Part shown: positions 1-64,000 of the stretch, piece by piece
Position numbering within the stretch: the first letter of the stretch is position 1
How the letters are laid out: the number at the start of each line of letters is the position of its first letter
NCBI GenBank assembly: GCA_965178125.1
Contig: OZ237735.1
Span: 2,232,001 to 2,296,000, forward strand
Length of the DNA stretch: 64,000 bases
From: Bilabrum cf. latius
Lineage: Eukaryota
Direction: 5' to 3'
Program-made: the position numbers and the translations under genes
The notes under the pieces: model-generated
Databases searched by the model: none
What the model was told of the DNA's origin: nothing
The model's input: only the letters and a program-made list of their open reading frames with translations

Positions 1-720
1 GTAACTAGGACGGCTGGGTGAGCAGTTGCATTCTCACAACAGTATCAGCAGGCCACCTGAATACACGTAAATCAGGTGCGCAAACAACTAATCGTGTGAA
101 ATGAATGGTTCGCGGAAACTCTTCGTCTGTGTCAGGCTCCATCGCAAAACCTGCAGTAGCAGCCCAACGAACAGCGGAGCTGTCAGAGTCGTCGGACGAA
201 GAATGGATGCGGCTATCAGAGCACAAATGAAAGACGTGGAGGTAAGGCCACGTGCTGATCCTAGAATTGTCCAAGACTTGCGAATCCGATGGTGCTGGAT
301 AGACTAAGTGAACGCCACCCAGGTAGCGGAGACTATCAGTACGATAGCATCCGGTGCTACTGCCATGAACCAGTCTCCGAGGTTTTCATTCTTGAAAAAT
401 CCAGCTATGCGCCAAGCAATCAAGCTCCCACTTGTCCCAGATTCGGCGAGAAGGGCTTGAAATATGACGTGCAGCAGGCAAGCGATAGCTGCAGTGCATG
501 TGGACACCAGCGCAACAATGTACTGCTACTTCGGCTTCCGGCCGAAAAGGCTCAACGGAGACGAAAATACGGGAGCTAACCCGAATGACGCAATTGCAAG
601 CATGCCATAGACAAGAGAGAATATGGATGGGCGCACCGCAGCGGCAGCCACAAGAACTACCCTTGCTACCCAAGTCGATATCAGGTATCCCTGCGGGGAT
701 ACACGAGACCGTCTGGCCAT
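1..720 (-). CDS. Piezo-family mechanosensitive ion channel, N-terminal part (gene runs off the window start)
   Basis: ATG at 720. One frame joins ORFs 526..726 and 304..507 through TAGs at 526, 304 and 88. The multi-TM sequence (AAAVRPSIFSLVYGML...LLHVIFQ...WFMAVAPDAIVLIVS...ASILRPTTLTAPLF...YSGGLLILL) resembles the Piezo N-terminal helices (RLVAPDLGILVVS; HPSALSSVY). A probable GTGAG intron donor at 37 removes the TGA at 34-36. Confidence 0.65.
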
Positions 721-1102
721 GGCCACTTTGGCTTCAAATGCGTCTTATTGGCTTGCGAGTATCTCAGACCAGTCAACTGTGCTTGAAAACGCGGCGGCGA
801 TCACTGGATTCCGCAACTGCAAGGTGTGTTTCTCCTCAGACACAAGCTCCTTCGAGACCAATTGCCGATTCAACAATGTCTTAATAGGTATCTGTATTTC
901 CGAAACCTTGATTGAGGGGCAGTTTATTGCCCCAAACCCACTCAGATTTGCATGCCAGCGCCTGGTCTTTTTGCCGATGATCTTCGCACGCAACAATTAT
1001 TTGAACAAACCAGATTTCAGTACCAGCCTTTGGCAGCCGTATACTCAGCATTCAATACTAGTACGACGCCCTTTATTTCCCCAATTCGTTGATAGTTGTG
1101 TT
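721..1102. promoter_or_regulatory. Divergent intergenic region between the Piezo-like and RNF25-like genes (putative bidirectional promoter)
   Basis: AT-richer ~380-bp gap between head-to-head start codons. No specific motif identified. Confidence 0.4.
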
Positions 1103-19325: not shown

Positions 19326-19503
19326 TGTTATGTTTGAGGCTCTCAAGCAGTCATGGGTTCCAAGTCAGGAGAAACCTCTGGGAAACACAGATATGGTATT
19401 ATTAATGAAGTAAGGTGTTAATAGTGGAACCCACGTGCGCTCGCGTCATTCTTTCCTCGAATCCTCGCACAAGAGCTTGCAACTCTCCAACAACGCAAGT
19501 AAA
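19326..19503. promoter_or_regulatory. Short divergent intergenic region (putative bidirectional promoter)
   Basis: 178-bp AT-richer gap between two head-to-head genes that both start with a signal peptide. Confidence 0.45.
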
Positions 19504-40100: not shown

Positions 40101-43100
40101 ATGACCAAGAGCGCACGGGCCGTCCGGCGCTGTCTTGGCGCCCTCGCAGAACCTTCCAGGGGGGCAAGCCAGGCACTCTTCCCAGTCCTGCAGGTTGTCC
40201 GCGATGCCATACCTGCCTGCAGGGCACGGGCACAGCTGCCCCACGGGACAGGAGGCCGGGTCCAGGCTCGAGGCTCGGTTTCCCGCAATGTTTTCCAGCA
40301 CGGCCCCGGGGCAGTAGTACCCTGGCTCGCAAGGCTAGGGCGGGTTGGATCCGCCCGTGCCCACCTCACAGGTGAATCGCTCGGGGCAGAGGTCGCAGTC
40401 ACTCGCGCTGGTGGTACGGTCCGAGTCCGAGTAGCGTCCCGCTGGACACGGGTCCTAATCGGGCTGGATGGTGCCAGCCTCGCAGTAGTGTCCGGGTTGG
40501 CACCGCACCGACAGCTGGTACGTGCCAGTCTGTGGGCAGGCCCAGCCTGCTGGGCAGTCCTGGCAGTCGGATGGTAGCACCCTCCTGGTCTGCGTGTTGT
40601 ACGTTCCTTGAGGGCACTAGATTGGATCTGCGGTATCGTCATCCGGGCAGTAGTGGCCCGGGGGACAGTCGAAGCAGTCAGACTGTGACTCGAGGCGATA
40701 CCGCTGCCCGCCCCCGAACGTGCCACCGGTGCAGTGCGTGATCGAGCTGAACCGGGTCCGAACCTCGCAGTAGCTGCCGGGCGGACATTCTTGTGGCTCC
40801 GAGGTTCCTGCGTTGCACCAGTATCCCGCGGGGCAATCCAGGCACTGGGTGTCGGAGATGGCACCCGGCTCTGGGTTGTAGGTCCGCACGGGGCAGTTCT
40901 GGGGCGTGCCGCGGCCCGCCTCGCAGTAGGTACCGGGAGGGCACACGAACATGGTGTCGCGCACCCTGCGGGGGTCCGTTGCTCCGGCACGGCAGAAGAA
41001 TCCGGGGGTGCAATCATCGCAATCTAACTGGGATGTGAGACCACGGGTCAAACCCCGGGTCCCGGCTGCGCAAGCAGTCCATCCAACCCCGCCACCAGGG
41101 CAGTACCCACCTATCGGGCACTCGGCGCCTTCAGGCTCGGGGCTCGTGCTGCGAGGCAAGCACGCCCACCCAGGGTTGCAATCCTGGCAGTTCGGGAAGC
41201 CAGAACCGCTGTACTAGTTGGCGGGGCACGGGTCCGGCTCCACCTGGCCGTATGGGCCAACAGTGCCGGGACACTCGAATCCCGGGGGGCACGCGGTGCA
41301 GTTGGTCGCTCCCGTTGTGGCGCTGAACCTCCCCGCGGGGCAGGATTGGGGAGCTAGGGACGTGACCGGGCATTCAGCTCCCTCCGGGCAGATCCTGCAG
41401 TCCATCTGCCCGAGAATGCTGTAGAAGCCAGGGATGCAGGGCGTCGTGGCCGTGCTCGCGGTGCTCACGCAGCTGTAACCAGCGGGACAGGTCGTGCACG
41501 CCTCGGCAGTGCCACCACTGAACGTGCCCACAGGACACACGTCGTTGTTGGCCGACCCGGCATCCTTGTCGGGGCACTCGTAGCCTGGTGGGCAGGGGTC
41601 ACATTCCACGGACTCCGCCTCGCTGATGTGTCCGAACGGGCAGACTTCCACCGCAGCTGAGCTCGTGGTGATGGGGCACCTGGAGCCGGCGGGGCATATC
41701 GTGCACTGGTTCGAATCATCGCCAGCGTCCGCATAGCGACCAGGGGTGCATCGCACGATCCCGGCTCCATCGGTGTTGGGGCACACGTACCCGGCAGGAC
41801 ACAGCGTGCAGCTGTCGCTTCCAGCCGGTGCGTATTCGCCTGAAACACAGGGGACGGGTGCATGCACCGTTTTCGGGTCGGGGCAGCGGTTCCCCGCTGG
41901 GCAAGGTGTGCACGACTTGGCACCTCCCTACGACGGGGTGTAGGTGCCCGGGGGGCACTCCACCTGTGCTGGGCTGCCCGAATCCGGGCATGCATACCCG
42001 GGGGGACAGGTCGTGCACTCCATCTGCGCGGCGGAAGCAAAGCTGCCAGCGGGGCACGGTTCTGGCGCCAGGTCCTGCACCGGGCATGCGTAGCCGGGCG
42101 GGCACACGGTGCAATTGAGAGACCGTCCGAGCGAGTAGGTTCCGTTCGGGCAGGGCTCTGGGGGCAGGGCCGGGCTGCCACAGACCTACCCAGCCGGACA
42201 CGGCGTGCATGACGTATCACCCGCAGCGGACGTGGTGCCCGGGGGACACGGCGCGGGTGGCAAGTCCTTTGTGGCGCATGCTTCGCCAGCCACGCAGCGG
42301 GTGCAGTTGGTACCCTCGCCCCCGAGGCTAAATGTACCGTCCATACATTCAACTGGCAGCTCGTCCGCCTCCGGGCAATAGAAACCCGCGGGGCACTGGT
42401 AGCAGGACGTGTTGCCGGCTAGGCTATACGACCCTGAGGGGCAGGGCTGTGGTACTGCCTGCGCAGGATCTCCGCACGAGAATCCGGCGGGGCACTCGGT
42501 GCATCCAGAGCTGCCAGGGGGTGCTAGGGTGCCTAGTGGGCACGGCACCGGCGGGACCGTGGGATCGGTGCAGAACGTGCCACGGGGACAAGTGATGCAC
42601 AGCCCGGCGGTCCCATTCTCCAAGGCTGCAACGGGATCTGCTCCCCTGGGAGCCCAAGTGCCGGGCTGGCACTGCTGGGGGCTCGACCGGGGGTCGGCGC
42701 AGGCGTACCCTGCCGGGCACGGCAGGCACCTGTCCTTCACGATGAGCTCCGAGTAGTCGGCACCCCCTCCTCCACCCGTCCCGTTAGACACCAGGTTCAC
42801 CACCCACGGCTCTACGCCCCTGGTTCCCATCGGGCAAACCTTGCACTGAGACTGGCCGCCCTCGCTGTACTGGCCCACGCCGCACTCGATCGGCTCCGCC
42901 GCCGGGTCAAGGCACGAGAACCCCGGCGGGCAGGGGAAGCACCGCCCGCTGCCAGGGCTGCTGGCGTAGGTGCCGTCCTCGCACGGGCGGCAGCCCTCGT
43001 CTGACGCCGCCCACGAGTACGTGCCTGCAGGGCACTGCAGCGGGGGCGTGGCAGCGGTACCGTTGGCGGGGCTACCAGAGCCGTCGCCGCCGTGGCACAC

Positions 43101-44081
43101 GGATCCCGCAGGACACGGCTCGCACGTCACGGACCCGTTCTCGGTGGTGTAAAAGCCCCTGGAGCACGGCTAGCAGTCGATTTCTCCACCCACGCTGAAA
43201 GTGCCCGCAGGACAGTCCTCGGGCAGCACGCTGCTGTTGGTGCAGCGCGCACCCGGCGGGCAAGCCACGCAGGCCGACATGCCGACGATGCTATACTGCC
43301 CCTCTCCGCATTGGGAGGGCGAGGACGAGACCGAAGGACAGCCCGCTCCCGCGGGACACTAAAAGCACTGCGTGGATCCCCTCGGAGAGTAGGTGCCCTG
43401 GACGCAGGGCACAGGATCCGCTGTGGGGTCCGAGCACTCCGCGCCAGCGGGGCACTCCTGGCAGGAGGAAGAACCCGGGCTGCTCGCGTAGAATCCAGCG
43501 CTGCAAGGGGAGCACGTGTTCGTCAAGCCAGCGGAGGCAGTGCCCGCGGGACACTCCGCTGGGCTGCTCGTGGGATCCGTGCACTGCCTGCCGGCAGGGC
43601 ACGGCTAGCACGAGTCCTGGCCCGTCTGGTCCTGGTACGTCCCCGCGCCGCAGGCCGTGCAGTCGCTTGCTTGCGTTGCGTTGAAAGCAGTTCGCACTGT
43701 GCCCAGCGAACAGGCTTGCGGGCTCGCGCACGAGCCTTCGCAGTAGAAGCCGGGAGGGCACCCAGCGCACACGGCCTGGCCGTCGCAGTCGCTGGGATAC
43801 GTGCCTGGTGCGCAGGGACAGGAGCACGCCGGCGAAACCGTGTCTCCGTTGAATGTTCCTCCAGCTGCTAGGCAGGAACAAGTTGAAAATCCGGCGTCCG
43901 AGACGGCGTCGGAAGGACAGCTCACGCAGTCTGCGCTTGAGTTGCCTGCCGCCGGCTTAAATGTGCCAGTGGGACAGGTTTGGCACGGCTGCACGCCATC
44001 AGGCGAAAACAAACCCGCGCCGCAATCTGCACCTCTCGCTAAACTGCCAATCAAAGCTAGCAGCACCAATGCCACCCGCAT
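22182..44081 (-). CDS. Giant type I membrane protein (~7,299 aa): signal peptide, ~4,000 aa of GCC2/GCC3-type Cys repeats, juxtamembrane domain, one TM and a ~2,600-aa coiled-coil cytoplasmic tail
   Basis: ATG 44081 (MRVALVLLALIGSLARG) to TGA-TGA at 22184-22179. All 13 long minus-strand ORF fragments are in one frame and are separated only by 19 TAGs, with no in-frame TAA/TGA in 21.9 kb. Repeats follow CPAGxYC...PxPCPxGTY. The TM VLAAIMGGLLVVVVVIITGVWIF lies near 30085-30155. The frame is also open upstream to 44579 (alternative ATG at 44342). Confidence 0.88.
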
Positions 44082-45140
44082 CTGTGAGCCATACACGTGC
44101 TGGAAACTGAGCTATCGCGATAGATGCCACCGGGAGAGCTGACCCTGGCGGGTGAGCTCTGAGCCCTTAGTAGCAAAAGACAGCACACTCGGGTGCCAAT
44201 TACTCTGGCCTGTTATGGTGCCAGCGCAGCCGTCCTTCTAGGTGTCGCGAGAAGTACCGACGGTTTCAGGCCGCGCTGCGTTGAGCCAGTGCTGCCTGCA
44301 GCGCGATCTATAGGAGCTAGCTGGCTGCTTAGCAACTACCATTGGGTCAGATAGAGGCTAATAAGCCAACGATAGCGGCACAGCTTCGCTCTGTGCAGCA
44401 GTAGTGTTGTAACTGAGACGTAAGCGCGGTATCGAGGTATCAGCAAAGGTTGGCTGTCTCAAATCCTGCGCAAGTAAGGGGGACACGCAAAAAGGGGTCC
44501 TTAAAGCTGCAGGTAATAGATCTCCAGCTTGTTTGGTTGAATCTAGCGGTTGCACCGCGATCAAAAGCCAAAGAGGAGTTCAGACGTGTGAGCGAGCGGA
44601 GGGCGCTTGACCACAGCGTCCATACTGACAGGATACTCTAGCAACGCACGCACAGACAACAGCACGCTCATGATAATATCATATGCTATTGGATCTCTAG
44701 TTCAGGTGCTCGAAAGGTCGTAACATTGACCAAGCGGGCACTGGAGAGCTCATGCGGGTTCGTGCGACCGCCGCTTCCCCTCTCTGTGACACACTGCGCC
44801 AAATAGACCTCGCAGCAATACAGCCTTCTTACACTTGAACTATACTCTGTATGGCGGGAATGACACAGGGCTTGTAGCCTGGTTGTACGTGCAAGCCCTG
44901 CCGAACCCGTTGCCGGCTTGCGACCAAAAATCGAAACCGCTGGTGAATTTGTAGTCTATTCCGAATGGAGCGTAAAATTAAAAATCTTAATTCTTGTTGT
45001 ATCTGCACGCAATGGCAACCATTGAATTATGATACATTCTACAAAATCATATAAGGGAGAGCATGAGCATGAGCAAGGCGAACGCTACTTGCACTGACAG
45101 CGCACGACACAGCACAGTTCGCCGAGCAGCTTGTCATTCG

Positions 45141-46272
45141 TCAGTGCAGCGTGTCTGGGTCGAGCGAAATCCCTGCCCCCTTCCCAACCTCCTCCGAATC
45201 GGCCTCCTTCGCTTCTTGTGCCGGCCCGTCGCTATCGGTGGCACCTGCACCCGAGGCAGCACCGCTGCTTGCAGTCGCCGCGCTGGCTGCAGAGCCCACC
45301 GATGAGGCCCCGTTGCCTCCGGAGCCCTTCCCGCCAGAAGCTCCAAAGGCCCCCTTGCCCCCTCCTAAACCGCCGTCGCCCCACATGTCATCGTCCTCGC
45401 CATCGAGATCGTCGAGGCCGCTACCAAGCCCCCCGCTGCCAAGCCCCCCGCTACTGCCAGAGCCGCCCCCGAACGCCCCGCTGCTCCCAAACCCATCGTC
45501 ACCGTTCTGCCGCCGCTGCCTCGACTCCGTGAAGGCCTTCGCGATCGTTTTCTTCATATCGTCGTCGCCGTCTTCATACATCTGCTTCATCATATCCATG
45601 ATGCTCGCGGAGGGGTCTTCCTGGTCCTTCTTCTTGTCGGCCTTCCCGGCCGTGGCCCTGGCGGCCTTGCGCTTGTCCACCAGATTCATGAAGTGCGACC
45701 ACTTGTCCGCTTTTCGAAGGAAGAGCGTGATCTTGTCCTTCTTTACCTTGAACTTGCTATTCTCAGGATCAATATCCTTGTCGAGGGGGGACTGAAGCAG
45801 CCTGTAATTCTTGCCATGCAGCCCGAGAACGCGTAGATCAAATTTTGATTTAGTGCAGTCTAGCTTGATGGAACCCTCAGGCAGCTCATGGACGCCATCC
45901 AGGCCACTCAAGATGTAGACTTTAACATTTTTATCGTTCTAGTCCCATGCAAACCTTTCGATTGCGACGAACTCCGTTGCTGGTAGCTCGGTGTGCGCAG
46001 GCCTGGTTGAAGCTGCTGCTTCGGGCTTTTTGTCCTATGGGAGCACCTGTATCTCCTTGTCGATGTCGAGTAGCAGAGATTCCAGCCTTTTACGAAGAGA
46101 TACGCTCACCGTTTCCTGGATGATGGAGTTCAACTCCCTCCTCTGGTCTGCGGGTGATTTGGAAAAATCCATGGACGCGTGGCACGCAAGTGTACGTCCA
46201 CGTAGTCCGCAAGATTGAACCTCAATCTAAATACCATACCAGCGGCTTATTCTCACCAGCAAGATCTTCCAT
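45141..46272 (-). CDS. CACYBP: Calcyclin-binding protein / Siah-interacting protein (CacyBP/SIP) homologue with CS domain, SGS-like region and a Gly/acidic tail
   Basis: Exon 1 46272-46257 (MEDLA), intron 46256-46148, exon 2 to TGA 45141. CS domain FAWD*NDKNVKVYI...SKFKVKKDKITLFLRK. SGS-like DPSASIMDMMKQMYEDGDDDMKKTIAKAFTESR. An unspliced alternative ATG lies at 46172. Confidence 0.85.
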
Positions 46273-47934: not shown

Positions 47935-48216
47935 GGCGAACCCGCGCAATATCTTTGATGAGCAAAACGTAAGTTTGTATTTCTATTATGACCAGGGAGC
48001 ATAGTCTCGTGTAGGCGACGGTTGGCTGCAGGCTTCCACAGCTGCACGAGCTGGAAGCTGGTTGGGCAGTGCTGTGGAACTTGCGAGCTGAAGTGCATCC
48101 ACGAGAGCTATTGTTCTGTTGCAAACGTAACCTTTTGCTTGTTTACAGGAAACACTTCTACAAGTGCGTATGTACGATTCATCGCATGATTATGTCCACG
48201 GGAGACCGACAAACTC

Positions 48217-51200
48217 TCAACCACCTTTGTCTGCCTCGCCACTGCCTTCCTCAGGGTCAAGCACTGCCCCGAGCCCAGCCATTGCCTCCCGGAGTGACCG
48301 AACCGCCACAGCATCCAGAACCGGAGCCTGCAGGAGCCTGGGCAGCGCCTCGGCCCACGCTTCTTGCACCGATGCAAGCACGCGAGCATCTACTTGAGCC
48401 GCACGGCGCTGCACCTGGAGGCACTCCCGGCAGTACGGGGGCAGCGGCAGAGACGAATCCTCGACGTCCTTGGCCTGGCGTTCCTCATTGCACTGGCTGC
48501 AGTAGTAGTCCGCTGCAGGCGAGTGGGACACGGCGCGCGTGATGGCGAGGCCGAGTTTCTGCACGAGGCCCGGGCCAAGCTCCACGAGGAGCTGCCTGGA
48601 TATCTGCCGTGTCAGCGACAGCGACAGACGGCTCGTTAGTCCGGGCAATGCGGCAGCGACCAGACGCTGCACGGCTCTCGGCACAGCCTTCTTGAGCACG
48701 TTTCTGGTCACTCCCGCCGCAGCGGCCGCCGGCAGCAACCGCTCCAGCTTGTCTGCTGCAACGCGCGCCGAGCTCAGCAGAGCTCCGCCCTTCAAAGACT
48801 GAGAGATTTCATCCACGACTCTAATCTCGATGTCCGCCACCGGGTCGCCGGCCTCCGGGGCGAGCTTTGCGCCGGAGCTACTCCTGGCACCTGCAGCGGC
48901 GGCTGACCCAGATGCCGCTCTGATTCTAGAAGTGCTCCTGCTTGACGCCTGCAGCAGTGTGGCAGGCAACGAGCCAGAGCTCCCAGTGTACTTGTCGTAC
49001 TCATATACCTCATGCTGCGGAGCACGATCATCGGGTGCGAGCGCGGTGTCTCCATCGACACCCGGCATGGTTCTCACGCTCGAACCGCCCAGCGGTTGGG
49101 AGGGAGCCTCAGCGGAGCACTGGCAGGGCTGCCCGTCCTGGGTGCGACCCACGCTCACCCCTGCGAATCGCTGCGCACCTGAGAGAGCTGGGTTCCCAAC
49201 CGGCCCCTGAGGGCACGAGCAAGGAGGTGGCTTCTAGGGGCCTGGGCCAGCCTGCTTAGGGAACATGGCGACGTCTGGGCCCGGTGCCATCAGCGGCACA
49301 CTCCCGGAATTCGGCACCATGATCGGGGGAATGATCAGCGGCATGATCAGCGACATGATGTCAGCGAACGGCTGCCGCACGACGTTGACCAGGATTTGCA
49401 GGATGATTTCTGGGGCCACGTTCATGATGATATCCACGATGCAAGCGAATGCCTCTTTGCTGGCAGTACCCACCCCGAGCAGCCCCGCCACACTCGCGTC
49501 AGTTTGCACCGATAGTAGAGCCATGGCTTTGTGCGGGTTCCCGTCGGCTGCCACGGACAGTGCGTGCTCGGTAGGGTGCCTCCAAGATCCGCTGCCGCGC
49601 CCGGATCGCTGCTCCTTTAGCCAGCCAACTACAACGTCGCCGTTGGCTGCGTGTGCGGCATCCGAGCCATTGTATGCCACTCCACGCGACTGAATTGCAT
49701 CGCGCAGACTGTTATGACCAGAGCCGGTCTCGGAGTGCAGCTGCAGCAGCACAGCATGGGCTAGCGTGACGGCAGCATGACGTTCATGATGCCGCGCTGC
49801 AGTGCCGCCGGCCGCAACTCCTTGCTGTAGAAGCGAGGCCGGTGCCAAATTCCCGTGGACCAGCGCGGCAGCCTTGCCTAGCTAGGTACGAGCGCGCGTG
49901 CTAGCAGCCTTCACGGCCGCATCGGCTGAAGTGTCCACGGCACCGTGTGACAGGACGCTGGCCTCTGCTTGCGCTCGCAGCACCGCCTTGCGGCCCTCTG
50001 CGGTTCTCGGCTGCCAGGAGTAGAGCCCGGCTGCATCATCGCCACCAAGATGTCCGTTTTGAGCTGCCGCCTTCTCCTGCGACCCTTGGATGGCCTTGGC
50101 CACTGTACCAAGCAGCGGGCTCGACTGTGACCTGCTGCCTACCCCAAGCGCCGTGGCCTGCCTCCAGACATCTGCCAGGCCCCTGCTCCACCCCGTAAAA
50201 GGACCCTGGTGAAGATACGCCCCATCTTGTTCTGCAGTTCCACTGACCTCTTTCGCAGCACCACGCGAAGTATCGTCCGTGCTGCTTGCCTCGTCCCCTC
50301 GAGAGGCCAGAGCACGCTCGGAGCGGAGCTACCCCGCCGCGAACCGCAGCGCAGATGACCCTCGCAAGGTCGCAGCCACATCATGGGCACTAACAAATGA
50401 GCCTTGCTGCCGCGACAAGGGTTCTGATATGTGGCCGTCGCGTCGACGGGCCACGCCGGACAGGGCTACATCCCCGTCTGTTGAGACGATGGCTGAGGCA
50501 GCAACATCGGCGGCTGGGGCGTCGTGCAATAGGAGCGCCTTGAGGAGCGAGTTGGTCCCGCTCGATTCAGCAAAGGTGCTCATGTTTCCACCGGCATCGC
50601 CATTTCTTTGATCCTACCGGCTGTGGCCAGACGCTGTAGAACGTGGAGGCAGTACCCTTCTGAGTACCTCTACCAGATACTCGACGTGCTTTCCCATGTC
50701 TGCATCCCCAACATGAATAGGATGCAACAGGCCTTCTCGAGTTGGTCGCGGCTCCGTCGCACCGTCCACTCCAGGACGCTCTGCCGGTGCATCGTTTGGC
50801 GGAGTCGTGCCGGCCTACCTGGAAGAGTCTGCCCTGGTGGCTTCACCCTGACCAGCTGTTTCAGCGCCCTGGCTCGACCAGGAGCGGTGCACTGCCACTG
50901 CCCAATTGGCGTGGTCCTGGCCTGCCTCTTGCCAAGCGCCCACGGTGGCAACGAAGTCCGGCTCGTCGTGCAGCCAAGACCCGACTTCTAAAAGGGCAGC
51001 ATCATGCTAGCCACTCTGATGCTCGCTGGATGCGTCGTCCGAATGCTCTGCCCAGGCGCGATCGGGCTCACCCAGAGAGCCCAGGGTTCGCATTGATTCG
51101 TCCATCTCGGCTGCCATAGAGTCTACGAAGGACTTGGCAGTGACCACTGTCACCGAATCTCCTTCCGTCCACGTACCAACGATTGGATCGGTAGCACGTA

Positions 51201-52353
51201 CTGCCCCAGGTAGCCCCCCGTCCTCCGGAAAGGCGAGCCGTGGGGCAGCTGGCGGGTCCGTTCGAAGCCCTGCAGTTGACCTCTGGGCAGCATCGATCGA
51301 GAGCAGTTTGCGAGACCCGGGATCTTTCTTGGATTTGCCGTGCTTTTGCTAACTTTTTTGATCGCTTTGGTGCTTCCCGTTCCAAGCAGCATGGTGCTGG
51401 TGCTTGTGACCCTGCGAGCGAGGGCATTGCCGCGGCGCGACGAGCATCCATCGTCCCGAGCTGTCTGGAGGCGAGCGCGGGATCGAAATTCCGCGGGATC
51501 TCGGCAAGAGAGGAGGTTGGTGCACTCTAACAGGTCCAGACGAAAACAAAAGAACGTTGTGGCTGTCTGCACCCTTGCTTTGGTCGCCTCGCGAGTCCTG
51601 CTACGCGGTGCTTCTCGTCCGGTCCCATTTGAACCAGCAGGCGCCTCCGGAGCGAATATGCCGGATTGGCAAGGAGAGTTTAGAAGATTCGTTCGTATTG
51701 CCTAGTCTATGGAGAACGTCGTCTGCCTCGGGTGCCGATGGGGCACCTGGCGTTGACTTCCTGTTGTCGTCGAGTGCTCGGGCAAGGTTGACATTTTCCG
51801 AGAGCATCTCCGAAATAGTCAGTCGACCGACTTCTCCGAAATAAAGGTGTTCAGTTTTATCCATATTCCCGGTCAGGGCCAGCAGGGTGTTCATTGGTAC
51901 CCTTTCTGGAGTTTCCCACGGAGTTGCGAATACAACATCAAACCATGCTACCCTGCCACTTTCTGGACCGATCGCACTGCCAGCTATCGAATGATTGCAT
52001 CCAGCCTATAGAAGAAGTTGCGAATTGGAGACTGGGGCTCGCACGTGCCGAATCCTATTGAAGTGAAACGACTTTGTCACTACGGAGGCATTCGATCTCG
52101 TCCCGCACTGCATTTTTCCAGTAAACTCCATGCTGGCACCAACGATTGGATTTATACTACTCGACATATGCCCCAAACCGGGTTGATCTGGACCTAGGGC
52201 ACATCCTAGTCGCAAAGAGGCCTCCATTCGTACTTTGCTGATCCAATGCGAAGGTCCTAGTGTCACTGGACCGGCCGGGATGCAGTCAATATCAGCATGA
52301 GCGCCGACCGACAATACACACAAAGCACCGAATAATACCAGACTTAAGCTCAT
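48217..52353 (-). CDS. Hypothetical secreted or membrane protein, ~1,378 aa
   Basis: ATG 52353 (MSLSLVLFGALCVLSVGAHA) to TGA 48217. Fragments ending at 52006, 51601, 51349, 50329, 49882 and 49234 share one frame and are joined by TAGs. It has a hydrophobic stretch near 49310-49450 and a C-terminal YYCSQC...YCREC. Confidence 0.65.
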
Positions 52354-52494
52354 TTCTCGCGGATTGAATTCATGTAGCAAGCGAAAATATGGAGCCGGCA
52401 CCTACGGTGAACTTCAAAGGAACGTTCGATATTCAAAGCTTGCTTCGCCTGTTCGGCGCCTTGAATCTGCACATTCCAAATCAAATTCGTGTTT

Positions 52495-55400
52495 TTAAGA
52501 CAAGTCAATCAGCCCGGCACTTCCCACTACGGCCTCGTTCAGCTTTTCCCGCAGCACCATGATCGTTGAGTAGTCCGGCACTTTGAGCAGGTGCGAGCAC
52601 GTGCTGGCGCTGGGCAAGACAAGATCATGCGGGTTGAATTCGTTCTCAGCACCCTCAGACATGTGACGAGACACAAAAGCACTTGGTGGCCTAGATAATC
52701 CTGCAGTGCTTTTCCCACCGGCCGCGCCGGAGCTGCCGCTGCTGCTGCCGCTGCCGCTGCCGCTGCCGCCCGCGCTCCCATGCGGCACCGCAGGCGCGGG
52801 CAACTCCACCACCCGGCCATCGAGCCTGATAAGCTCCCCACCATTCATCCCAACCCTGATCCAACGACCATCTGCACTCCTCACGCGGCGACCACCCAGC
52901 TCCTCCGGGTCCTCGTCCTCATCAGAGTCATGGCCGTCGCCATCCTCGTCGTCCTCGTCCATGTTGCCACCTCCAGATTCGTCGCTTTGCACATCGATCG
53001 GTTCAGCAGAGGACGCGACCCCTCCTGCTGCGCCCCGCACCTGCATAGACAGCCACTACGGGAGCTCCTTCGCACCCACCGTGAGTGGGGGATCCAGAGC
53101 AGCTAGTCCGCCGGGCGGGAGGATGGGGGACCCAGTGGCGAACTGCAGGAATGCGCGGCGCTGTAGCTGGGGCATTTCCATCATCAGCTCTCGCACGTTC
53201 TTTACCACTGAGCTTGACGTGAAGTAGGGCGGCCTAGCCTTCACGTGCTCTTCAAGATCCTGCAGCGTCCAGTGCACGGTGCTGCTTCCGCACAGGATCC
53301 GAACCATCTCTTGAGCTTGCAGGAGCGGAATGGCCGGGATTGACATGACGTCGCTCATGCCATCCAGCATTGCCTGCAGCTGAGGCCGGACACCGTCCCA
53401 GGCGATGTGCCGGCCCCAGGCATCTACGTACAGGTCGACGTCGTCCGCAGCCAGGTCGGGATCCTCCCAGTCTGTCTCGGCGTGAGGGTCCTACGGACCC
53501 AGCAGGCACCAGTCTACCGCCTCTGGTGAGGATACTGTAGCCCGAGGCCGTCCTTTAGTGCCCATGATTTCATCGCTGCTGTCATCTTCGTCAATAGCAG
53601 CTGCTATCTCAGCATCGGCACGGACGGGGCTCGAGGGCGCCGAGCTGCCCTGGCTCAATCCCAATGAGCCCTTCCCGCCCGACCTCTTTGGCTGAAACTA
53701 TGAGGACTGAGATGCGCTTGCCTCAGAAGTTGCTTTGGCGGGGGATTCCGTCGTATCGTGCAGACTGCTTGCCGTGCTGCGCAGGTGCTGTCGGCTCATC
53801 GCCTCCCGCACAACGGGCTCCAGGTCGGCTCTGGCGCCTTGCACGTGCATGTTGAGAGACCCGTCGCGATTGCACAGGAAAGGCCTCGATATTAGCTTCG
53901 CCATGCGCTCACGAGCCAGCACCAGCGGGTGGGACGAGGCCAGGGGTGGCGCTCCTTCCCCTCTGAACGGAAGCAGGCTGGAACCAGTCAGGGGTTCACA
54001 CCACTCCAGGTAGAGGTCATCGACGGAGGGACCAGCATCGGCAAGGGCGTTGCTTTTACTCGCGCTAGCGGCGCTTGCGGAGGCACCGTTGCAGTCCTCG
54101 AGCTTGGCTCTTGCCATGGCACCCTCCGCCTTCGCGTTGGCTGCTACAAGCATCTGCTGCATGGATCGCAGCCGCAGTCCTCCTTGAGATGCTGAGCCGC
54201 TGTCTTCATCTACTGGGTCATCGCTCATGGCAGCTGCCGCAGTTGTTTCGATCGTCTTTTGTGGAACAGAAGCAATTGACTCCTTCAAGCTTGCAATCTT
54301 TGCCTCGATCTCTGCAACCTCTGACTTGGCAGCCAGCACGTTGTCAAGAAGCTCAACCGCTGGCGAGCCACCCAACCTGACGTGCGCCTTGACTAGCGCA
54401 AGCTCATCTCGCCTCGAAATCACGCCAGCAGTCTTGGCGACGCGCAACTTGTGGCGCACCTCAGCGGCCGCCAACAGGCCCGAGCCGACCGCGGGGTAGT
54501 ACTGAGTCAGCACTTGCTTCACGAAATCCCGCTCGAAGGCAGGGTACGTCAGCCTCCAAGGGCCCGCTTCGCTCCCTTGATCGTCACCAGGCACACGCAA
54601 GCTGTATAGTCCCTTCCAGCCCCCAGCTCGCGCCATGGAGGCGAGCATGCCCTTCACAGAGTCTTCCCTTGTGGCAGTGATTCCATGTTCACTTGCAATC
54701 CCAGCCAGCATCATCATGATCTTGATGGCAAGAGGACTCAGCTGGATAGGCAGCACCTGCTGGTCCATCATCGCTCTCCCAACGACTCTGCCAAGCGACC
54801 GAAAGTGCGCTTCGACGGCGTCCCGCGCCCGAGAGAATGGCCTCACAGGCAATGGCGCTGGAAACAGACCAGCAGGGTGAGACGCGACAGGATCGTCCCA
54901 TTCATCAATGCCAGGCGGGGCGTCGTTTGCCACTGCGCTACGATCATCTTCGTCACTCATGGCGCCCATGGTTGCACCGGCTGCCGTCGCAGAAGCAGCC
55001 GATGAGCTCGCTGCCGATGAGCTCGCTGCCGATGAGCTCGCTGCCGATGAGCTCGCTGCCGAGGAGGCCTTCGTTGGTGCCACTGCGCTCGCCGGGCCCC
55101 CTTGCGTGACGCTTCCAGTGGACGCGGCAGCGGTGGCTGACTCGCTTTGGTCTGAATGCCACAGCCGCAGGATCTACGTGGCCTTACTAGACTCGGATCG
55201 TCTCAATAGAGACTCCCATACGGTTGGAGTGACATCAGGGTGGGGCAGGGCACGATACCCGCTGGCATACCTGCGTAGTCTGAGCTTCAGTGCTGATGGC
55301 TTAGGATGAGAGCTCTACGCTACAGATTTCGATACAAGCTCAGGCTACTCCTCAACAGCTGCAGCCTTCGATGAACGCCTGCGTTTCTTCGTGGGCCGGC

Positions 55401-58400
55401 TGGACGCCTTGGCATTCGACCGCGAGCTGCGTGCACTGTCTGGTGATCCCAGTGACTCTCTGTCTGCTCCCACTGTAGAATCATCATCACTAGGCAGTAG
55501 AGCAAGACTGTGGGCAGCGACTGCTATTCGCCTCGGGGACGATCGTGGTCGCTTCCGACTCCTACTCGATTTTGCCTTGTCCCTGCCACTCCAGAGGCCC
55601 TATGCTCCTAAACGCAGGAACGCCGCAAGCTCATTGTCGCGCCCTCCGTTGTTCGACAGTGCGGCAACGATCTGTCTGCACTCGTCAGCTGCCGAGGTGG
55701 TCGGGACCTACAGGCTCAGGCAAGAAGCAGCCTGCGCGAGGGCGGCATATGCCTCCCGGTTGACGCCAGGCCCGTGCCCGCGCTCCCCAGAGAAACTGAA
55801 CGACACCATGCCTTGCCGAGCAGAGAGGGGGGAGGCGCCGTAGCGCACGAGGCCCGCCAACAACGCCCCCGCCGCCACCAAAATCGAGCGGTTGCGCTGC
55901 CGAGGCGGCAGCTCTATCCGGCAAGTCTGCAGCCGCCGCTGCATGAGGTTGAGCTGGGGTGAATACGCCCAGCCGCGATCGAGCCTGGATGGAACTTCGG
56001 CTTCTCCGATCTAGTTGATTTTGTGAGCAACGTATCTCCAGGAGTACTTGAAGGGGTGCTCAGACATGCCGGGCGCGTACCCGATCCAGTCAGCCATATC
56101 AGACCCCTCACAGACCTTGACAAGCTTGATACCACTCGGCCCGTACTGTACACTCTACATTGACTCACGGACCACGCGCACCGCGTATTTCGCCTGGTCC
56201 GACATGACCACCGTGCCCGAGAGCTTCCTGGCTAGCATTCGGATGCGCTCAATGGAAGCGCCTTGCAGAGCGACTGCCGCTGGGGAAACGTTGTCGACAT
56301 CGCTTGGCAGCTTACGGAAAACGCCAGCAAAGAACGCACGGGCATTGTTGACGTATAAAGGCAAGTCGGTCTGCTCTTGCGGAGAGACTTCAGATGGCTC
56401 TGCTGGCGCCGTCGGCGTCATTCCCGGCGTTGCAGTTGCCACTGCTCTGGTTGCAAGCGACTATGCAAGCGACTTTCGGCGTTTGCGGGACTTCTTCTTG
56501 CCAGGTATGGCCTCCTTGCCGCCTTCACCAGCTATCTGCTGCTCCGCAATGGCTATCCACTCGTCCAAGCGTCTCAACGAAAGCCGGCAGGCACCTCTCA
56601 TCAGGCCCCTGAGCTTGTTGTACCTGTCCCGCATGAGTTCTGCTCTGGACTCATACAAGCCCTTAATGGCCTCCGCCTGAGCAGAACCTACCTCAATGCG
56701 ATCCCTCGCAAACTGCGCGCATGATTCACTGTACCGCTGTCCGCCGAATGCGATGGCTCGCTGGGCCACCAGCCTCAGTGAGGCCGGCAGTAGAGACGGA
56801 GCATCCCTAAGAACACCGAGAAGCCAGCCAGGCACCAAACCTGAGGTACAGGCCAGACCGTCCGCCAGCTGAAGGCGCAGACGATTTGACAGGTAGGGGC
56901 TGTGCGGCGTCAGCGGGATCTTCATGCACGCCGGCCTGCTGACAGCATCCAATGCAATTGCGTCGACGCGTTCAAGGCTTAGGTCCCCACTTTCACCGAG
57001 CATAACCTGTGCGATCTTCTGAGCAGTGCAGTCCCCTGCAGCTGCTAGCTTTGCGGCAGCCGAAGCTTTGTGAAGGGTGTGACCGAGAACTCGCAGCCCC
57101 CGAATTCCGTACGTCTGCCTACCCATGGCAAGGAGGTCTTTTGGGGGCAATCCCTTCGACGACAGTGTTGCCTGCATCGCCTCAAGGCCACTCGATAAGG
57201 CGCGCAGCTCCTCACGGGCGTCATGGCGCGACGAACGCTCGAACTCATTGTGTAGTTTAGGATCGTCAGACTGCGCCTCCTTTGGGAGATTCTTGGGACT
57301 ACTTGCTCCAGCCACGGCCTCTGTGCCCTCGGGATCAGTTCTAGCGCGCTTCTTCCCGATCCCGCCACTCGATTCTCCGCTGGTGACTGCTTGCTACTCA
57401 AGGTCTGAGCTGCCGTCACGAGATTTCAACTCTGCCTCCTGCTGGGCGATTGTGCCAGTAAGTGCGGCCCTGTTGACCTCAGCTAAGTAATCAGAGATGC
57501 TGTCAAAATCAGCAAGGACTGGGCAAAAGTCAACGACGAGCGTCGGGCCGCCAGGAACAAGCCACGATGGGTAGTCGGTCTCAGCATGGTTTAGCAAGGA
57601 GAGAGTAGCAGCGCCCTACCTTCTTCCTTGCCATGTGTGAGTCCAATTGCGGACCATATCGGGCGGGCACCCGGCTCCCTTCATGTTTGCGGCAAATTTT
57701 CGAGATGTTTGGCCGCTTTGCGCGAAGCGAGCGTACGCAAGAGTTGGATCTGATTGCAGCTCACCAAGCCACCAGTACATTTGGGCAGCGGACTTGCAAT
57801 CTGCGAGATAGCCGCGCCACTTGCCCTACGTGTCTGTTTTATCCACTTTGAATTGCCACAAATTCGATTGCTTCTAATGCTGACGAGCCAAAAATTCGCG
57901 AAGTGCCCTCTGCTGCACCTCTGCGAAAGTGACCAGCCTCGCTAGGAAGTTGGTGTCTTGATGCGGCTTAGTAGCGTCGACAAAGTTGCAACCAGAGACT
58001 GAACGATTCTAATCGTTGAACGCACTGGACGGCGCGTCGGTTCTGACAGGGACAAATGGCGTGCATGCCAACGGAGGGGCGTTCGGCTTTGAGCTCCACC
58101 GCAGCGAAAGTCGCATGAGCAATCGGACATTCGGCCGCAAATAGCGGCTTAATGCAGCACCACCGTGCTGTCCAGTCGGGAATACCGCCCGATTGGCATA
58201 TCTATCAGAAGCTGATGGATGGATGTAGCTGCTGCGCGGCCTTCCAGTGGCGCTGAGCTCGCTACTTGCCATAGGAGGCCGCCCTAACGCCGAAGACCAG
58301 AAGGATCGCCTTCCGATTGAAGGAACTTCGTCTACCTACTCCAAGCACTTTGCATCCTATGCCATGTCACCGACTGCGCTAGCTGCCGGGGATGCTGGAG

Positions 58401-61400
58401 ACAGCTGGGCTGATCTGGTTGCGAAAGCTGCCGCGGAATGTACGCCACACACAGTCCAACGTTCACCGAGGAACTAAACACTGTAGCTGGTCGGACTAGA
58501 CGAGTCATAATTGCCAATGCACCCACGATTGGCACCTAAAGACGCGCTGTCGAAGGAGAACGGCGGGGCAAAGCCGTCCCTATCGGGCTGTAGCCGGCTG
58601 TAGTCAAAGGAGCCTGATCGAGTCGCGGATAAAGGGCTGAACCTATCCCTAGATGAGCTGGACTTTGACTCTCCGTTTGGATCTGGTAGAAGCGCAAGTT
58701 CTGACATGAACGGGGCACCAGAGGGCGAGCAGATTGAGAGGGGAGATGCAAGGGAAGACAGCGTCTGGTCTACCAAGCTCTGAGCATCGGATTCGGACAG
58801 CGGGTCGTCAACCTTCACGAGCATCAGGCCTTCGTCCCGTACGCTCAGCCTTGGAAAGCTTAAACCCGTGCTGATGCTGGCCTCGAAGCTCGCCTTGTCG
58901 CTGGCACTCAGGGGCACGTGGGTGTTAGGGTCTTGCACAGCCTCTATGGCCTCCTGAACAGCAAAATTCTTCCTCTAGTCTGCTTCTCCAAAAGACGCCA
59001 GCTCAAGAATTCGCGCAGTTCTACTGACAGCGTTATGTTCAACATGGCAGCCCATAGATTCTCGATGAGAATCGGAGCTCCTATAGAGGACTGGCGAATT
59101 GGCATGGATGCGAAGTCGGCTCTTATTCGGCCCCACTGCTTTCGCATTGACAGTCATTGGCTCGGAAACTCGAAGGTCTACTTCTTCCCAGCGATAACCA
59201 GTAAGCGCAGTCAAATTAAAGCCACCAAACACCCTATGCTGACGCAACAGCTGCAGTGTGGCTTGCATGGTCACATTGGACAAGGACAGACGCAATATCC
59301 GTGCTGCATCTGCCATCGCTGTGCGCTGCAAGTCGGCAAGTTGTGGTATCTCACGAGATCTCCAATCATCTTCCAAAGCAGTTCCTCGATCAAGTGCAGA
59401 ATGAAGCGCGTTTGTACCACGCCTCGCGGCTGATTGAAGCTGCAAAGCCACTACTTGCCATCTAGCTTCGAAAGGAACGCCTTGATTCCGCAGCCAATCA
59501 GCATCACTCTCCTGCACGTGACGTGCAGTAGCTGCCCATGAATCCTTCGATAGCTTGCTTTTGGCAGTCGTTGCTTTTGATGGCTTCTTTTTGGGTGGCT
59601 GCTCGGGGACAAACTTAGACGACTGCCTGTCAGACGGTATCCGGCCGGTCACAATGCCATTAGATAAGGCCGCTTGGACCAGCGATCGAGACTTCGAAAG
59701 GACCTCAACGTTGAACATAGAACCTAAATACACACTGCCTACGGATTCAGATGACGTGGGGCCGGATGACGCAAGCTACGCCTAGATAGGTTGCGTATTG
59801 GACGGAACCCCAGCCAGCATGCATCGGTGAAGCCGCATGCTCGCAGACACAGGCACCCTGTTCAAATACGCTGGCTTCTGCAGAGGTGCTATTCTGTAGT
59901 CTATGCGGGGCTAACACGTCTTCATTGCATTCTTTCGAAGCTTAGTCAACGTCTCCTCCAACCGGATTGGTACCCAGGCCCACTAGTTAATAGAATCCTC
60001 GTCATCCGATTCAACTTCTTCTTCCTCATCTTCGTCTTCATCCTCAGTACTCGAGGGGCTACGCAATCTAGCAGCCCCGACGATTCCCCGACGAATCACG
60101 AACCTGAGGGCATGAATTGGTAAAGGCACCCAAAATGGACCCTTCGATGCATCAGAGAGTTGAACGAATGCGTGAGTGTTGTAGATGAAGCCATCCATAG
60201 TGTCTGAGCACCACATTCCCGGCTGGATACCCGGAAGGTTTGCTCCCATCTCTATCTCACTCATCTGGTTGATTTGGTGGTGCTACTACCCATGAGGAAT
60301 TCCTTGATGATGGTGAGCAAACCTGGAATTCTCAAGAAGCAGAATAACCGCTTCCTCCCAGCGGTCTGAGTACGGGCTGTGCACTGATACCACGTCTCCA
60401 ACTCGAAGGCCCATGCACCATAGGCTCAGCGAGCATGCGTTGAGGGCGGAAGGATGGTGGCTTGAGACAACAATATCCTTGTCGGGAAGACTATCCAGAG
60501 AGGTGCCCAGGAGAGGGTCCGTTGTTGACAAATTCATGGTACCAGGCAGCAGACAGGAGTACCTGCTCAATCTTGCGATGTCATTGACATTGCTCAGAAC
60601 GTCAACATCGTTCCTGACTAGATCGGAGAAAGGCAAGTCCTCTACTTCATCGCCTTCAGCTTCTGGGACTTGGCTCTATTCCGGAAGCATGGCAAGCGCA
60701 TTCAGCATCAGCTCACAAGATCGCAAGCTACCGGTTTGAAGCCGCTCAACTGTGTGCAAATAGGAGCCACCGACCCTGCACTTGCTCTGGCTTGCCATGA
60801 GGCCTGCGTCCCAGAGATTGTCTCTCCGCATACATGCCGAGGGCCGCATTGCTTCAAGTACTGCGAAAATTGCAGCAGTAGCGGTTTTTCGTGCTGAGAA
60901 TTGCAGCATTGAGGCCGGTGTCACGCACAAAACCAAGTCAGGCGCGCGGTCTAGCATTTCAAGCTCCTTGTCTCGAGACGCTCCCTTGCTTGCCTGCTTT
61001 CCCTTCTTTGACCGCGTCGTTCTCTTTGGCCCCGAAGGCGCACGGGTCACGATAGGAAGGCACTCGAGCTTTTCATTATCTCCTCCATGTTTCACCGTCA
61101 CGGTCTCGTCAGCTCGTTTCGCGCTGCTTTGGGTGGTCTCAGCCGGTGGGTCATCTGCCCCGGCACCAGAGGCGGGCCCTCCACCAGAGATAGCATCGTC
61201 CGGTGGGGCGCGCGTTTCAGAGATCTTCGAGATATCGCGAGAGTGGCGACTCAAGCTACCGGGAACGGGCAGGGTAACCCTTGTAGTACCCCAGCACTCC
61301 ATCTCGCTAACAGCAAGGTTTGTCCTGTATCGTTGCTATTCGATCCCAGCAAGGGATTCCCCTGGCGCCAGACTATCGTGGATGCGCCTATGGTCATCGG

Positions 61401-64000
61401 CGGTGAGAGATCGACTCCAAACGCAGCTGAGGGTCTTAGAATTGAAGTCAGCCGTCCTCACGGCGACCCAGTCTCCCGGCTATCCAGCAGGAACGATGGC
61501 CGTGATGCGGCCGCCATCGCGACTGGCCTTCTCTACGGTGATACCTGAGACGGATTTGCGGGTGAACGGGCTCAATCCTAGCAAGTACTGTTGATGACGC
61601 ATAGCCCCAACGAGGTCGTCTGCTGACGATGGCAGCTCGAATTGGAGCGTCGAGTAGTCTGCCTGACTGTTTAACAACGATGCTCGCAATCTCAATTCCG
61701 CATCGGTAGTCGATAAATTCATCGGCACCGAGACATCAAATGCCTAAACCGGTGCGATAGACTGTATCGGCGCTGTCCACTCCGTGGCAGGAGCTACAAT
61801 GCCAGGGCTCAGTCCAAGGTCGTGCGTGTCCTGGACCGCTAAACCACTTGCCCCTTTGAATGCTTCAGATGCGCCGATTTTCCATTCTTGCGCATGGACA
61901 CTCGAAACATCTACTGTAACCAGCATCGAGCGAAGCTGGAGCTACCTTGTGTCCAGAATCTCGACCGGCAGCGGTACCGCATGACGATCGGGCCTTGACG
62001 TGCTGCGAGATGCGCTTCGTTCAAGTGCAGCATCCAACTCGCTGCTCATTGGCTGAAACTTGTGATTGGTATCACGTTCGTGACTCTTGCAAACCGCTGT
62101 TCGAAAGCATTGCTCGTCTACAGTCAAAACTCGTTGATTTCGAGCTCCAGGCAACAGCTCGAATGGGTGATTCGCTGTAGATCGCACTGGTCGCACTGGC
62201 TCGTTAACAGTCCGCGGCACTATGAACGAAAATAGTCGCAAGGGTAGAGACCTGGCACACTGATCAATGTCTCTTGTCAACAAGGACACAAGAACCGCGT
62301 AGCCACGAGCAAGCTGCATGGAATGTAGCTCTGAATCGGCACGACCCTCCTTCATGGCAGAGGCAAGGACGCTTGCCAACTTTGAAAAAACGCGCCTAAC
62401 TCCCGACACACCGGTGCGCTAACTATCAGCGAGTAGGTGCTTCTTGATTCCGACCCACACTCTATTCGCCCAGGAGGCAATCGACAGGGTCGTCGAGCCT
62501 CTCATGATTGCACCGCTCGTAGAGACGAGTGGGTCGCCTTCCTCCCAAACAGCTGGGTCAACATTTGCAGCACCATCTGGCCCAGCGGGCGTATTGCTCC
62601 AACCCTTCAAGATAGAGGAAGTCACAGCCACGTCGTCTTGCACAGCTGCAGTTGACAAAAGAAGCAACAGTGACTTGCAGTGCTCCATGGAGCTGGACGG
62701 CTCCGCAGCAATACGGCGCGCAAGGCTGACACACAATTCAAGGAAGTCGTCGTGGCGTCCGGTGCTTTTCCGCAGAAGGCTAGAGACGATACTGACCATG
62801 GAAGATAAAGCATCGCTATGCTGCTGTAGCGGATGCTTCGGAACCAGGAGCCTCTTAGCATATTTCCACAGCTCCTGCTGTCCATAGGCTTCAGTGTAAG
62901 CAAAGGCGCCTGCCCTCAAAGATAGTAGCGAAGCTATTGATGGGGTTGCAACTGGCATGGACTGCCAAACTGCGCATGGCAGCCCGCACGAGTAGACCAC
63001 GGAGGTTTTCTTTTCTTCTGAGCAATCGTAATCGCACGATGGGCACCGCCCGAAGGATTTTGCACTGGACATACCGCACTCCCTGCAGACGTACTTCGTG
63101 TTGGTCTAGACTGCACCGTCAAGACGAGCCATGCTCTCAACTTTAATGCCCTCTCTAGCAGCGATGTAAGCCATAAGTGGGTTCAACTCTTGCTAAACTT
63201 TTGAATTGGTTGGCGAAGCCAAAAGGATCTCGCAAGCATCGCCCAACGCTTGCAATTCCAGCGAGACGACATCGTTCGGTAGCCGCGACATCGTTGAAGC
63301 GGCCTTCTCCATGCTTTCATGGGCAGTGAGGCAGGCGTGAAATTGTTTTGCGCACCTGATTAGTTCGGTCATCTCAGCAACGACTGACACACCAGACACC
63401 GACTCAGGCGCACTGGGAAGGCTGTCGAGATACATGTGAGTGCTGTTCCTGCAAGCGCCCTAGCTCCTCGGTGAGCATCCTGAGGAAGCTGAAATGACCG
63501 GACCGAGGTCAAACCCTGGCGTAAGTCGATCGCGGTACAGCTCATCATCCGAAATATCGGCCCCGGTTCTGAACGCTGCACAAGACCCAATTGGTGCAAA
63601 GCCACTACCTGGACCACCAACCTAAGTGGTAATTGCGGTGATTTCTGGTGGAGACCACATGCCCTCACCTATGATAGGCTGCGCACTGACGAAAGGTATG
63701 GAGGATCTGGGTAATTTCTCTTCGGCTCCGCTGGTCGTCACGCTTCGCACCTGCTACATGGATCCCACTGCGTGTCTGGCGCGATAGGCACCGTGCTGGG
63801 AGAGCCAAGCATCGACTTTAGCCATGGCCCGTACTGCCGGAGATGCAAACTATTGCTGCGATTTGTCAGCTCGCGGGGTGACTGGCCCCAAGCGTTCCAG
63901 GGCATCAGCCGAAGGAGGCAATCCATCCGAGAAGCAGTCGCTGCATGCGGACGCAATGGCATCCTCTACCAAGACGAATGGCTCCACGTCTACTTTCGAA
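52495..64000 (-). CDS. HECT E3 ubiquitin ligase, TRIP12/Ufd4/UPL3-like (>3,835 aa, 5' end beyond the window)
   Basis: About 18 ORF fragments lie in one frame with at least 25 in-frame TAGs and end at TAA 52495. The family signature YLSNRLRLQLADGL...VPGWL...APSLLP...R...AFG is present. HECT motifs are FSGERGHGPGVNREAY, GLFPAPL, FRSLGRVVGRAMMD, RRAFLQFATGSPILPPGGLAALDPPLTV and LPSASTCSHLLKVPDYS...DLS-stop. Confidence 0.88.
52731..52770. repeat. Imperfect (GCTGCC)n microsatellite encoding a Gly-Ser linker in the HECT insertion
   Basis: agctgccgctgctgctgccgctgccgctgccgctgccgcc encodes GGSGSGSGSSSGS on the minus strand. Confidence 0.7.
55001..55060. repeat. Coding minisatellite: four perfect copies of the 15-bp unit GATGAGCTCGCTGCC (AASSS repeats in the HECT protein)
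   Basis: Read directly from the sequence. The unit length preserves the frame. Confidence 0.9.

Follow-up and report, generated by a model that had tools for sequence, protein, structure and literature searches.

Can UAG be translated as a sense codon in a nuclear genome in which UAA still ends genes? The question is raised by a 64-kb stretch of DNA (positions 2,232,001 to 2,296,000 of contig OZ237735.1; the whole of these 64,000 nucleotides is hereafter called the window), in which a gene for a HECT E3 ligase contains numerous in-frame TAG codons and terminates with TAA. Nuclear genetic codes seldom change, and when they do at UAG or UAA, both codons are nearly always affected. The explanation that we favour, with a probability of about 0.85, is that the window comes from a GC-rich (rich in guanine plus cytosine), gene-dense and intron-poor eukaryote, the nuclear code of which assigns UAG to glutamine and retains both UAA and UGA as stops, the same form as that of NCBI translation table 15. 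Termination in the window is mostly by UGA, with UAA as the minor stop, as eight genes end in TGA and one in TAA.

The GC content of the window, taken in 4-kb steps over the 64 kb, is 0.55-0.69. The standard set of stop codons splits this DNA into many medium-sized open reading frames (ORFs), and treating TAG as sense yields a small number of very long ones, the longest comprising 2,405, 2,882, 7,465 and 3,834 codons. The window has nine genes, with intergenic spacers of tens to a few hundred bases, and the ORFs encode eukaryotic Pfam domains (leucine-rich repeats, ephrin-receptor-like repeats, thrombospondin type-1 repeats, HECT, CS/SGS and spermidine synthase).

The part of UAA is best seen at the 3' end of the HECT gene, which is defined by three features:

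52498..63999, minus strand: coding sequence of a HECT E3 ligase (TRIP12/UPL3/Ufd4-like) of 3,834 codons with 38 in-frame TAG, its 5' end open at the window end; Pfam HECT, E-value 8.7e-34
52495..52497, minus strand: TAA terminator of the HECT gene, at a family-conserved C-terminus
52414..52416, minus strand: next in-frame TGA past the HECT TAA, in the short spacer before the ATG of the next gene (52351-52353)

Read as the reverse complement of positions 52495-52620, the end of the gene is ...REKLNEAVVGSAGLIDLS followed by TAA at 52495-52497, and the C-terminus of the protein is ...AGLIDLS directly before this codon. Thirty-three residues follow the catalytic Cys, the same number as in six of six UPL3/TRIP12-type homologues, all of which end in (D/H)LS, as compared with DLS in the window. 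The closest solved relatives, TRIP12 and Ufd4, stop at the equivalent position: 13 residues lie past the aligned C-terminal block in the query and in the human TRIP12 chain, and 3 in the query and in the yeast Ufd4 chain. By its catalytic Cys and fixed C-terminal tail, the predicted protein belongs to the TRIP12/UPL3/Ufd4 subfamily, the comparison having been made on the C-terminal part of a gene that is open at its 5' end. Reading through TAA would add 27 residues (26 codons after the TAA itself) until the TGA at 52414-52416 is met, and by a manual count about 9 of these 26 codons end in G or C, versus a third-position GC fraction of 0.60 in the gene.

Codons were counted in eight genes, each taken from its first ATG, which gave 19,657 in-frame codons. 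These include 152 TAG, no TAA and no TGA, whereas in the other two frames the same sequence contains 43 and 80 TAA, 247 and 425 TGA, and 150 and 148 TAG. In part, the absence of TAA follows from the procedure, in which TAA and TGA marked the limits of the ORFs; the length of the frames, which extend for up to 7,465 codons without TAA, does not. TAG makes up 152 of the 1,041 glutamine-type codons (about 15%), and some of the in-frame TAG lie inside Pfam-matched domains. CAA and CAG occur in the counted genes in a proportion of 225:664, and if TAA and TAG followed the same proportion, about 51 in-frame TAA would be expected, of which none was observed; thus, TAA behaves like TGA and TAG like an ordinary codon. 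The initial annotation of the window, which had placed the AGLIDLS-TAA end of the HECT ligase exactly where TRIP12/Ufd4-family proteins end, is borne out by the conserved distance from the catalytic Cys and by the equal chain ends. Likewise, its eight other complete genes ending in TGA agree in number with those that we counted (including spermidine synthase with its TGA at 47932-47934), its single visible TAA terminator is the only one among nine gene ends, and the absence of in-frame TAA from the coding frames, which it had reported, was reproduced by the count.

Further gene ends were provided by L001, a metagenome contig of 4,482 bases (GC 0.54) that came up in a single scan of such contigs. 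Ordered relative to each other as in the window, it contains the 3' end of an orthologue of the thrombospondin type-1 (TSP1) repeat gene, the gene of a calcyclin-binding protein (CacyBP), the spermidine synthase gene with both its introns, and the 3' end of an orthologue of the gene with a 1,398-codon ORF that lies next to the HECT gene; the four alignable gene pairs are 55-79% identical. Its 1,073 in-frame codons include seven TAG, no TAA and no TGA, and its genes terminate twice with TAA and twice with TGA. Both TAA ends belong to orthologues of genes that end with TGA in the window, namely the TSP1 gene and the 1,398-codon gene, and all four L001 gene ends are located within a few residues of the TGA ends of the window genes. 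Together, the window and L001 offer three TAA ends and ten TGA ends, none requiring TAG. Judging by these counts and ends, L001 follows the same code as the window. The proposal of the initial annotation that UAG is a sense codon and UAA still a stop, so that the two UAR codons are uncoupled, is therefore upheld by the window counts, the HECT end and the relative L001, as is its statement that the code differs from the ciliate table 6, considering the lack of in-frame TAA against the 51 or so expected and the use of TAA at the end of the HECT gene and of two L001 genes.

The identity of the amino acid, which the initial annotation did not name, was derived from the TAG codons of conserved genes, primarily of the following two:

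46434-46552, 46640-47397 and 47612-47934, plus strand: spermidine synthase in three exons; Pfam E-value 4.2e-58; TAG at 46698-46700, TGA at 47932-47934
45141..46147, minus strand: second exon of a calcyclin-binding-protein-like gene (CS and SGS domains by Pfam); TAG at 45939-45941, TGA at 45141-45143, intron at 46148-46256

All 119 homologues that align at the column of the spermidine synthase TAG have Gln there, and the 120th sequence (metagenome protein P0002) is truncated at this place. The TAG of the CacyBP-like gene is aligned to a Gln of human CacyBP (PDB 1x5m), to Gln in five of the eight aligned homologues, and to Gln in L001. The comparison between the window and L001 constitutes the strongest evidence for glutamine: at 15 aligned sites with TAG in one or both sequences, TAG faces CAG six times, CAA three times and TAG once, and the exchanges go both ways, including reciprocal ones between TAG and CAG in the TSP1 pair. 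Weak support is added by the profile of the Cys-rich repeats of the giant gene described below, in which 13 TAG sites put Gln first (3.8), narrowly over Thr (1.9), with Leu at 0.1. On the basis of these alignments, the amino acid encoded by TAG is glutamine.

That the TAG codons and the terminal TAA are present in transcripts is indicated by the sequencing runs in which the stretch was found. Four introns are skipped by contigs of runs X5, X6 and X7, coming from two studies, and are kept by the DNA run X1:

46553-46639 and 47398-47611, plus strand: GT..AG introns of the spermidine synthase gene, RNA contigs against the DNA run
46148-46256 and 44465-44831, minus strand (CT..AC on the plus strand): introns of the same GT..AG type, RNA contigs against the DNA run

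Both introns of the spermidine synthase gene are skipped by all three RNA runs. None of the runs listed as containing this stretch is recorded as RNA, and the status of X5-X7 was judged from the skipped introns: since their contigs omit introns that the DNA run keeps, these runs represent RNA, which also shows that the genes undergo transcription and splicing. With its spliceosomal introns, the source of the window is a cellular eukaryote. A 117,792-base DNA contig of run X1 covers positions 44400-52721 of the window with zero differences, and the RNA contigs likewise agree with it letter for letter, TAGs and TAA included; neither is thus removed by editing. In particular, one X5 contig (48153-52374) spans the entire gene of the 1,398-codon ORF, another one over the 3' part of the HECT gene carries three TAG (53058, 53493 and 53700), and a third (52480-52721) covers the HECT TAA. 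The latter contig ends at 52480, 15 bases beyond the TAA, and none of the listed RNA pieces extends over 52375-52479, an interval that includes the following in-frame TGA and that the DNA contig does cover; this was not counted as evidence for termination, as contigs cannot show RNA ends and a single run is concerned. A (GCTGCC)-type repeat at 52722-52780 in the HECT gene corresponds to a Gly/Ser run, and both DNA and RNA contigs break there. Four DNA runs, X1-X4, contain the stretch over its full length, and the runs X1-X7, DNA and RNA together, bear three different organism labels.

As to the mechanism, the predicted decoder of UAG is a tRNA-Gln(CUA), one mutation away from tRNA-Gln(CUG). 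The uncoupling of UAG from UAA would follow from such a decoder, because C34 of tRNA-Gln(CUA) cannot pair with the A of UAA. On the side of termination, eRF1 would have lost or weakened its recognition of UAG and kept that of UAA and UGA. A plausible route could begin with a GC-rich genome in which UGA ends most genes and UAG terminators have become rare, the latter then being captured by a mutated copy of the tRNA-Gln(CUG) gene. A CUA tRNA and an eRF1 no longer reading UAG, which the initial annotation had proposed for the window, are also what is predicted for Iotanema and for the rhizarian exLh in the published account, where the eRF1 of Iotanema is reported to carry T32G in the GTS motif, one of the N-domain motifs tied to stop recognition along with NIKS and YxCxxxF, and where the responsible tRNAs are described as unknown for most variant codes (PMC5304391).

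Several observations weigh against this interpretation of the window. ARAGORN found no tRNA genes in the window or in L001 (Rfam at gathering thresholds likewise yielded no RNA genes in the window), and the eRF1 gene is not located within the 64 kb, which bears on the mechanism. The window itself has a single TAA terminator, the other two TAA ends belonging to the relative L001, and the sample of nine gene ends in the window and four in L001 is small, so that some genes elsewhere might end with TAG. As regards the amino acid, the CacyBP-like TAG site is Leu in two and Ala in one of the eight homologues, and 5 of the 15 TAG sites compared with L001 face non-glutamine codons (GAT, CTT, GTG, AAG and GGC, once each). 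A likelihood test on neighbouring residues gave 7.8 for Leu and -1.9 for both Gln and Val; it was judged uninformative and was not relied on.

Among the alternatives, the one that survives best shares the codon table and differs in the decoder, and we consider it unlikely, if worth keeping in mind: an ordinary or altered tRNA-Gln(CUG), and no dedicated tRNA(CUA), would read UAG with a mismatch at the first codon position, aided by an eRF1 weak on UAG. Neither the window nor L001 contains a tRNA gene that would argue otherwise, and there is a precedent of a kind in the tRNA-Trp(CCA) with a 4-bp anticodon stem, which is reported to read UGA in some trypanosomatids and ciliates (PMC13092985, PMC13192750). 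However, with TAG at 152 of 1,041 glutamine-type codons, the load on mismatch reading would presumably be heavy, and tRNA-Gln(UUG) could be expected to read UAA in the same manner, yet UAA never occurs in frame. The simplest mechanism would still be the dedicated tRNA-Gln(CUA).

Less probable still is an ambiguous code, in which UAG means glutamine inside genes and also terminates some of them by context near the 3' end of the mRNA. Condylostoma (with UAR) and Blastocrithidia (with UAA) are reported to have such codes, and the small number of gene ends at hand leaves room for one. Moreover, TAG was read through by construction, and a TAG end shortly before a TGA would be missed. Nevertheless, no gene in the window or L001 needs TAG as its end, the last in-frame TAG lying 31 to 855 codons before the terminal TGA or TAA of each gene, and the ends of the CacyBP, spermidine synthase, TSP1 and unknown-protein genes, all TGA or TAA, agree between the window and L001 within a few residues.

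It is very improbable that UAG is a sense codon for another residue, e.g. leucine, which is its reported meaning in the rhizarian exLh and in some of the phyllopharyngean ciliates. The neighbour-residue test does put Leu first, and Leu stands at the CacyBP site in the two homologues mentioned, CTT also being found at one of the 15 sites facing L001; against this, Gln occupies the spermidine synthase site in all 119 homologues, nine of the 15 L001-facing sites are CAG or CAA, human CacyBP has Gln, and the repeat profile favours Gln (3.8) over Leu (0.1). Finally, a code of the table 6 type, with UAA and UAG both for Gln, UGA as the sole stop, TAA rare merely through GC-richness (0.55-0.69, with A-ending codons in the minority, as CAA with 225 against CAG with 664) and the HECT protein 27 residues longer, up to 52414-52416, is hardly credible, since in spite of a single TAA end being visible in the window there is no TAA in 19,657 codons versus about 51 expected and none in 1,073 codons of L001, TAA stands exactly at the conserved HECT end, and two L001 orthologues end with TAA where the window has TGA.

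The remaining genes of the window, to which the codon counts and gene ends above refer, are as follows:

48217..52353, minus strand: protein of no known family, 1,378 codons counted from the first ATG, TAG present in frame, ends with TGA (full ORF 48217-52413, 1,398 codons)
22182..44342, minus strand: giant gene with Cys-rich repeats, 7,386 codons from the first ATG (full ORF 22182-44579, 7,465 codons, 22 TAG), ends with TGA TGA
19627..22023, plus strand: ORF with thrombospondin type-1 repeats (TSP1_ADAMTS, E-value 6.9e-27), 13 in-frame TAG, ends with TGA
10716..19364, minus strand: ORF with ephrin-receptor-like Cys repeats, 2,882 codons, 23 in-frame TAG, ends with TGA
2857..10074, minus strand: leucine-rich repeat ORF, 2,405 codons, 41 in-frame TAG, ends with TGA
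461..2803, plus strand: ORF without Pfam family, 780 codons, 7 in-frame TAG, ends with TGA

The first two genes at the left end of the window, 461-2803 (plus strand) and 2857-10074 (minus strand), are convergent, and their TGA stops are only 53 bases apart; consequently, their 3' untranslated regions must be very short or overlapping. The content of the giant gene is known from the reading of its Cys-rich repeats; the gene is closed by a tandem pair of TGA (22179-22184), and the 367-base intron at 44465-44831 (minus strand), located upstream of its first ATG (44342), looks like an intron of the 5' untranslated region. In the window this 22-kb gene sits between the TSP1 and CacyBP genes. In L001, only about 280 bases separate the TAA of the TSP1 orthologue (645-647) from the TGA of the CacyBP gene (924-926), which implies that an insertion, loss or relocation of the giant gene took place in one lineage or the other.

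The spermidine synthase of the window (exon 47612-47934) has a C-terminal extension with a hydrophobic Ala/Gly/Val-rich stretch, located past the point where the enzyme usually ends; such a stretch is uncommon in an enzyme that is normally soluble. L001 (about 3300-3624) has kept the extension, with 59% identity over the last exon. Intron 2 of the L001 gene (about 3150-3240) contains a hexanucleotide microsatellite, producing repeated two-residue patterns in all three frames. Contigs of X5 and X7 have in common a loose end of 27-28 bases, which leaves the genome sequence at 52149, within the 5' part of the 1,398-codon gene; no AG precedes this point on the minus strand, and the loose end might represent an alternative exon, the junction with a paralogue or a branch in the assembly.

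The phylogenetic position of the organism was approached through spermidine synthase. The window protein is 78% identical to the metagenome protein P0002, and the closest named homologues, from unrelated groups, show 47-50% identity. In a tree of 28 rows, which included no fornicate, the window protein and P0002 were paired on a long branch (1.54) that lay apart from all the groups included. Both of the database proteins, P0002 and P0122, are shorter at the N-terminus than the corresponding window genes. Annotation of the window genome, or of its metagenomic relatives, with the standard code will cut proteins at every TAG. Tentatively, and with a confidence that stops a little short of even odds, we suggest that the window and its environmental relatives (L001, P0002 and P0122) may represent a eukaryotic lineage without placement so far, in which the change of UAG to glutamine took place separately from those in Iotanema and the ciliates, and which would be the first such case with a GC-rich, gene-dense and UGA-dominated genome.

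If so, the window would point to the capture of a UAG codon made rare by GC pressure and UGA dominance, and not to the AT-rich setting of the known cases. As its base composition and preferred stop differ from those of the described cases, the window can serve as a test of whether UAG capture depends on AT pressure. Each independent UAG-only case would also mean that UAG and UAA are separately readable, and would supply another natural pair of eRF1 and suppressor tRNA; UAG-only reassignment has been linked to genetic-code engineering in the published account of Iotanema and exLh (PMC5304391). A cellular lineage with code 15 would, in addition, be a candidate host type for the giant viruses that apparently use this code. 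Public runs already contain both DNA and RNA data for the organism of the window.

Compared with known systems, the setting of the window is unusual. Ciliate macronuclei are AT-rich, with gene-sized chromosomes in Phyllopharyngea, and are unlike the 64-kb GC-rich stretch with its nine genes. UAG alone is reported to have become glutamine, as in the window, in the ciliates Hartmannula sinica, Trochilia petrani and Protocruzia tuzeti, and UAA is given as the preferred stop of phyllopharyngeans, versus TGA here (PMC11687900). Other UAG-only changes have been reported with residues other than the Gln of the window: leucine in exLh and in a phyllopharyngean clade, and serine in Scotinosphaera. The ciliate PL0344, in which UAA is reported as Lys and UAG as Glu, displays the same split between the two codons with a different residue. 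Codes of the table 6 type, described in many ciliates, hexamitin diplomonads, Streblomastix and some Ulvophyceae, share UAG for Gln with the window, but there UAA is a sense codon too, and Amoeboaphelidium protococcarum, for which both TAG and TAA are reported as Gln, does not fit the window either. The name 'genetic code 15' is used for TAG as Gln in crAss-like and other phages (PMC9523058); as described, these have a codon table of the same form, but are viruses, the hosts of which use a different or an unknown code, whereas here we deal with a cellular eukaryote whose genes have spliceosomal introns.

The uncoupling of UAG from UAA was reported first in 2017, for exLh (UAG as Leu) and Iotanema (UAG as Gln) (PMC5304391), and the novelty that the initial annotation implied for it was overstated, the phenomenon having been documented since then. 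In the open full-text literature, with subscription journals and bioRxiv supplements outside the scope of the search, we found no account of a eukaryote that combines a GC-rich, gene-dense genome with UAG as glutamine. The closest counterpart is Iotanema spirale (Fornicata), which, according to its published account, has the same three codon assignments, the same uncoupling and the same predicted mechanism, but uses UAA as the primary terminator, versus TGA at eight of the nine gene ends of the window, and is known from a transcriptome, whereas the window is genomic, GC-rich and gene-dense (PMC5304391). What sets the window apart is the GC-rich, gene-dense and TGA-dominated setting, not the phenomenon, and the window probably represents a further case of a known type of code.

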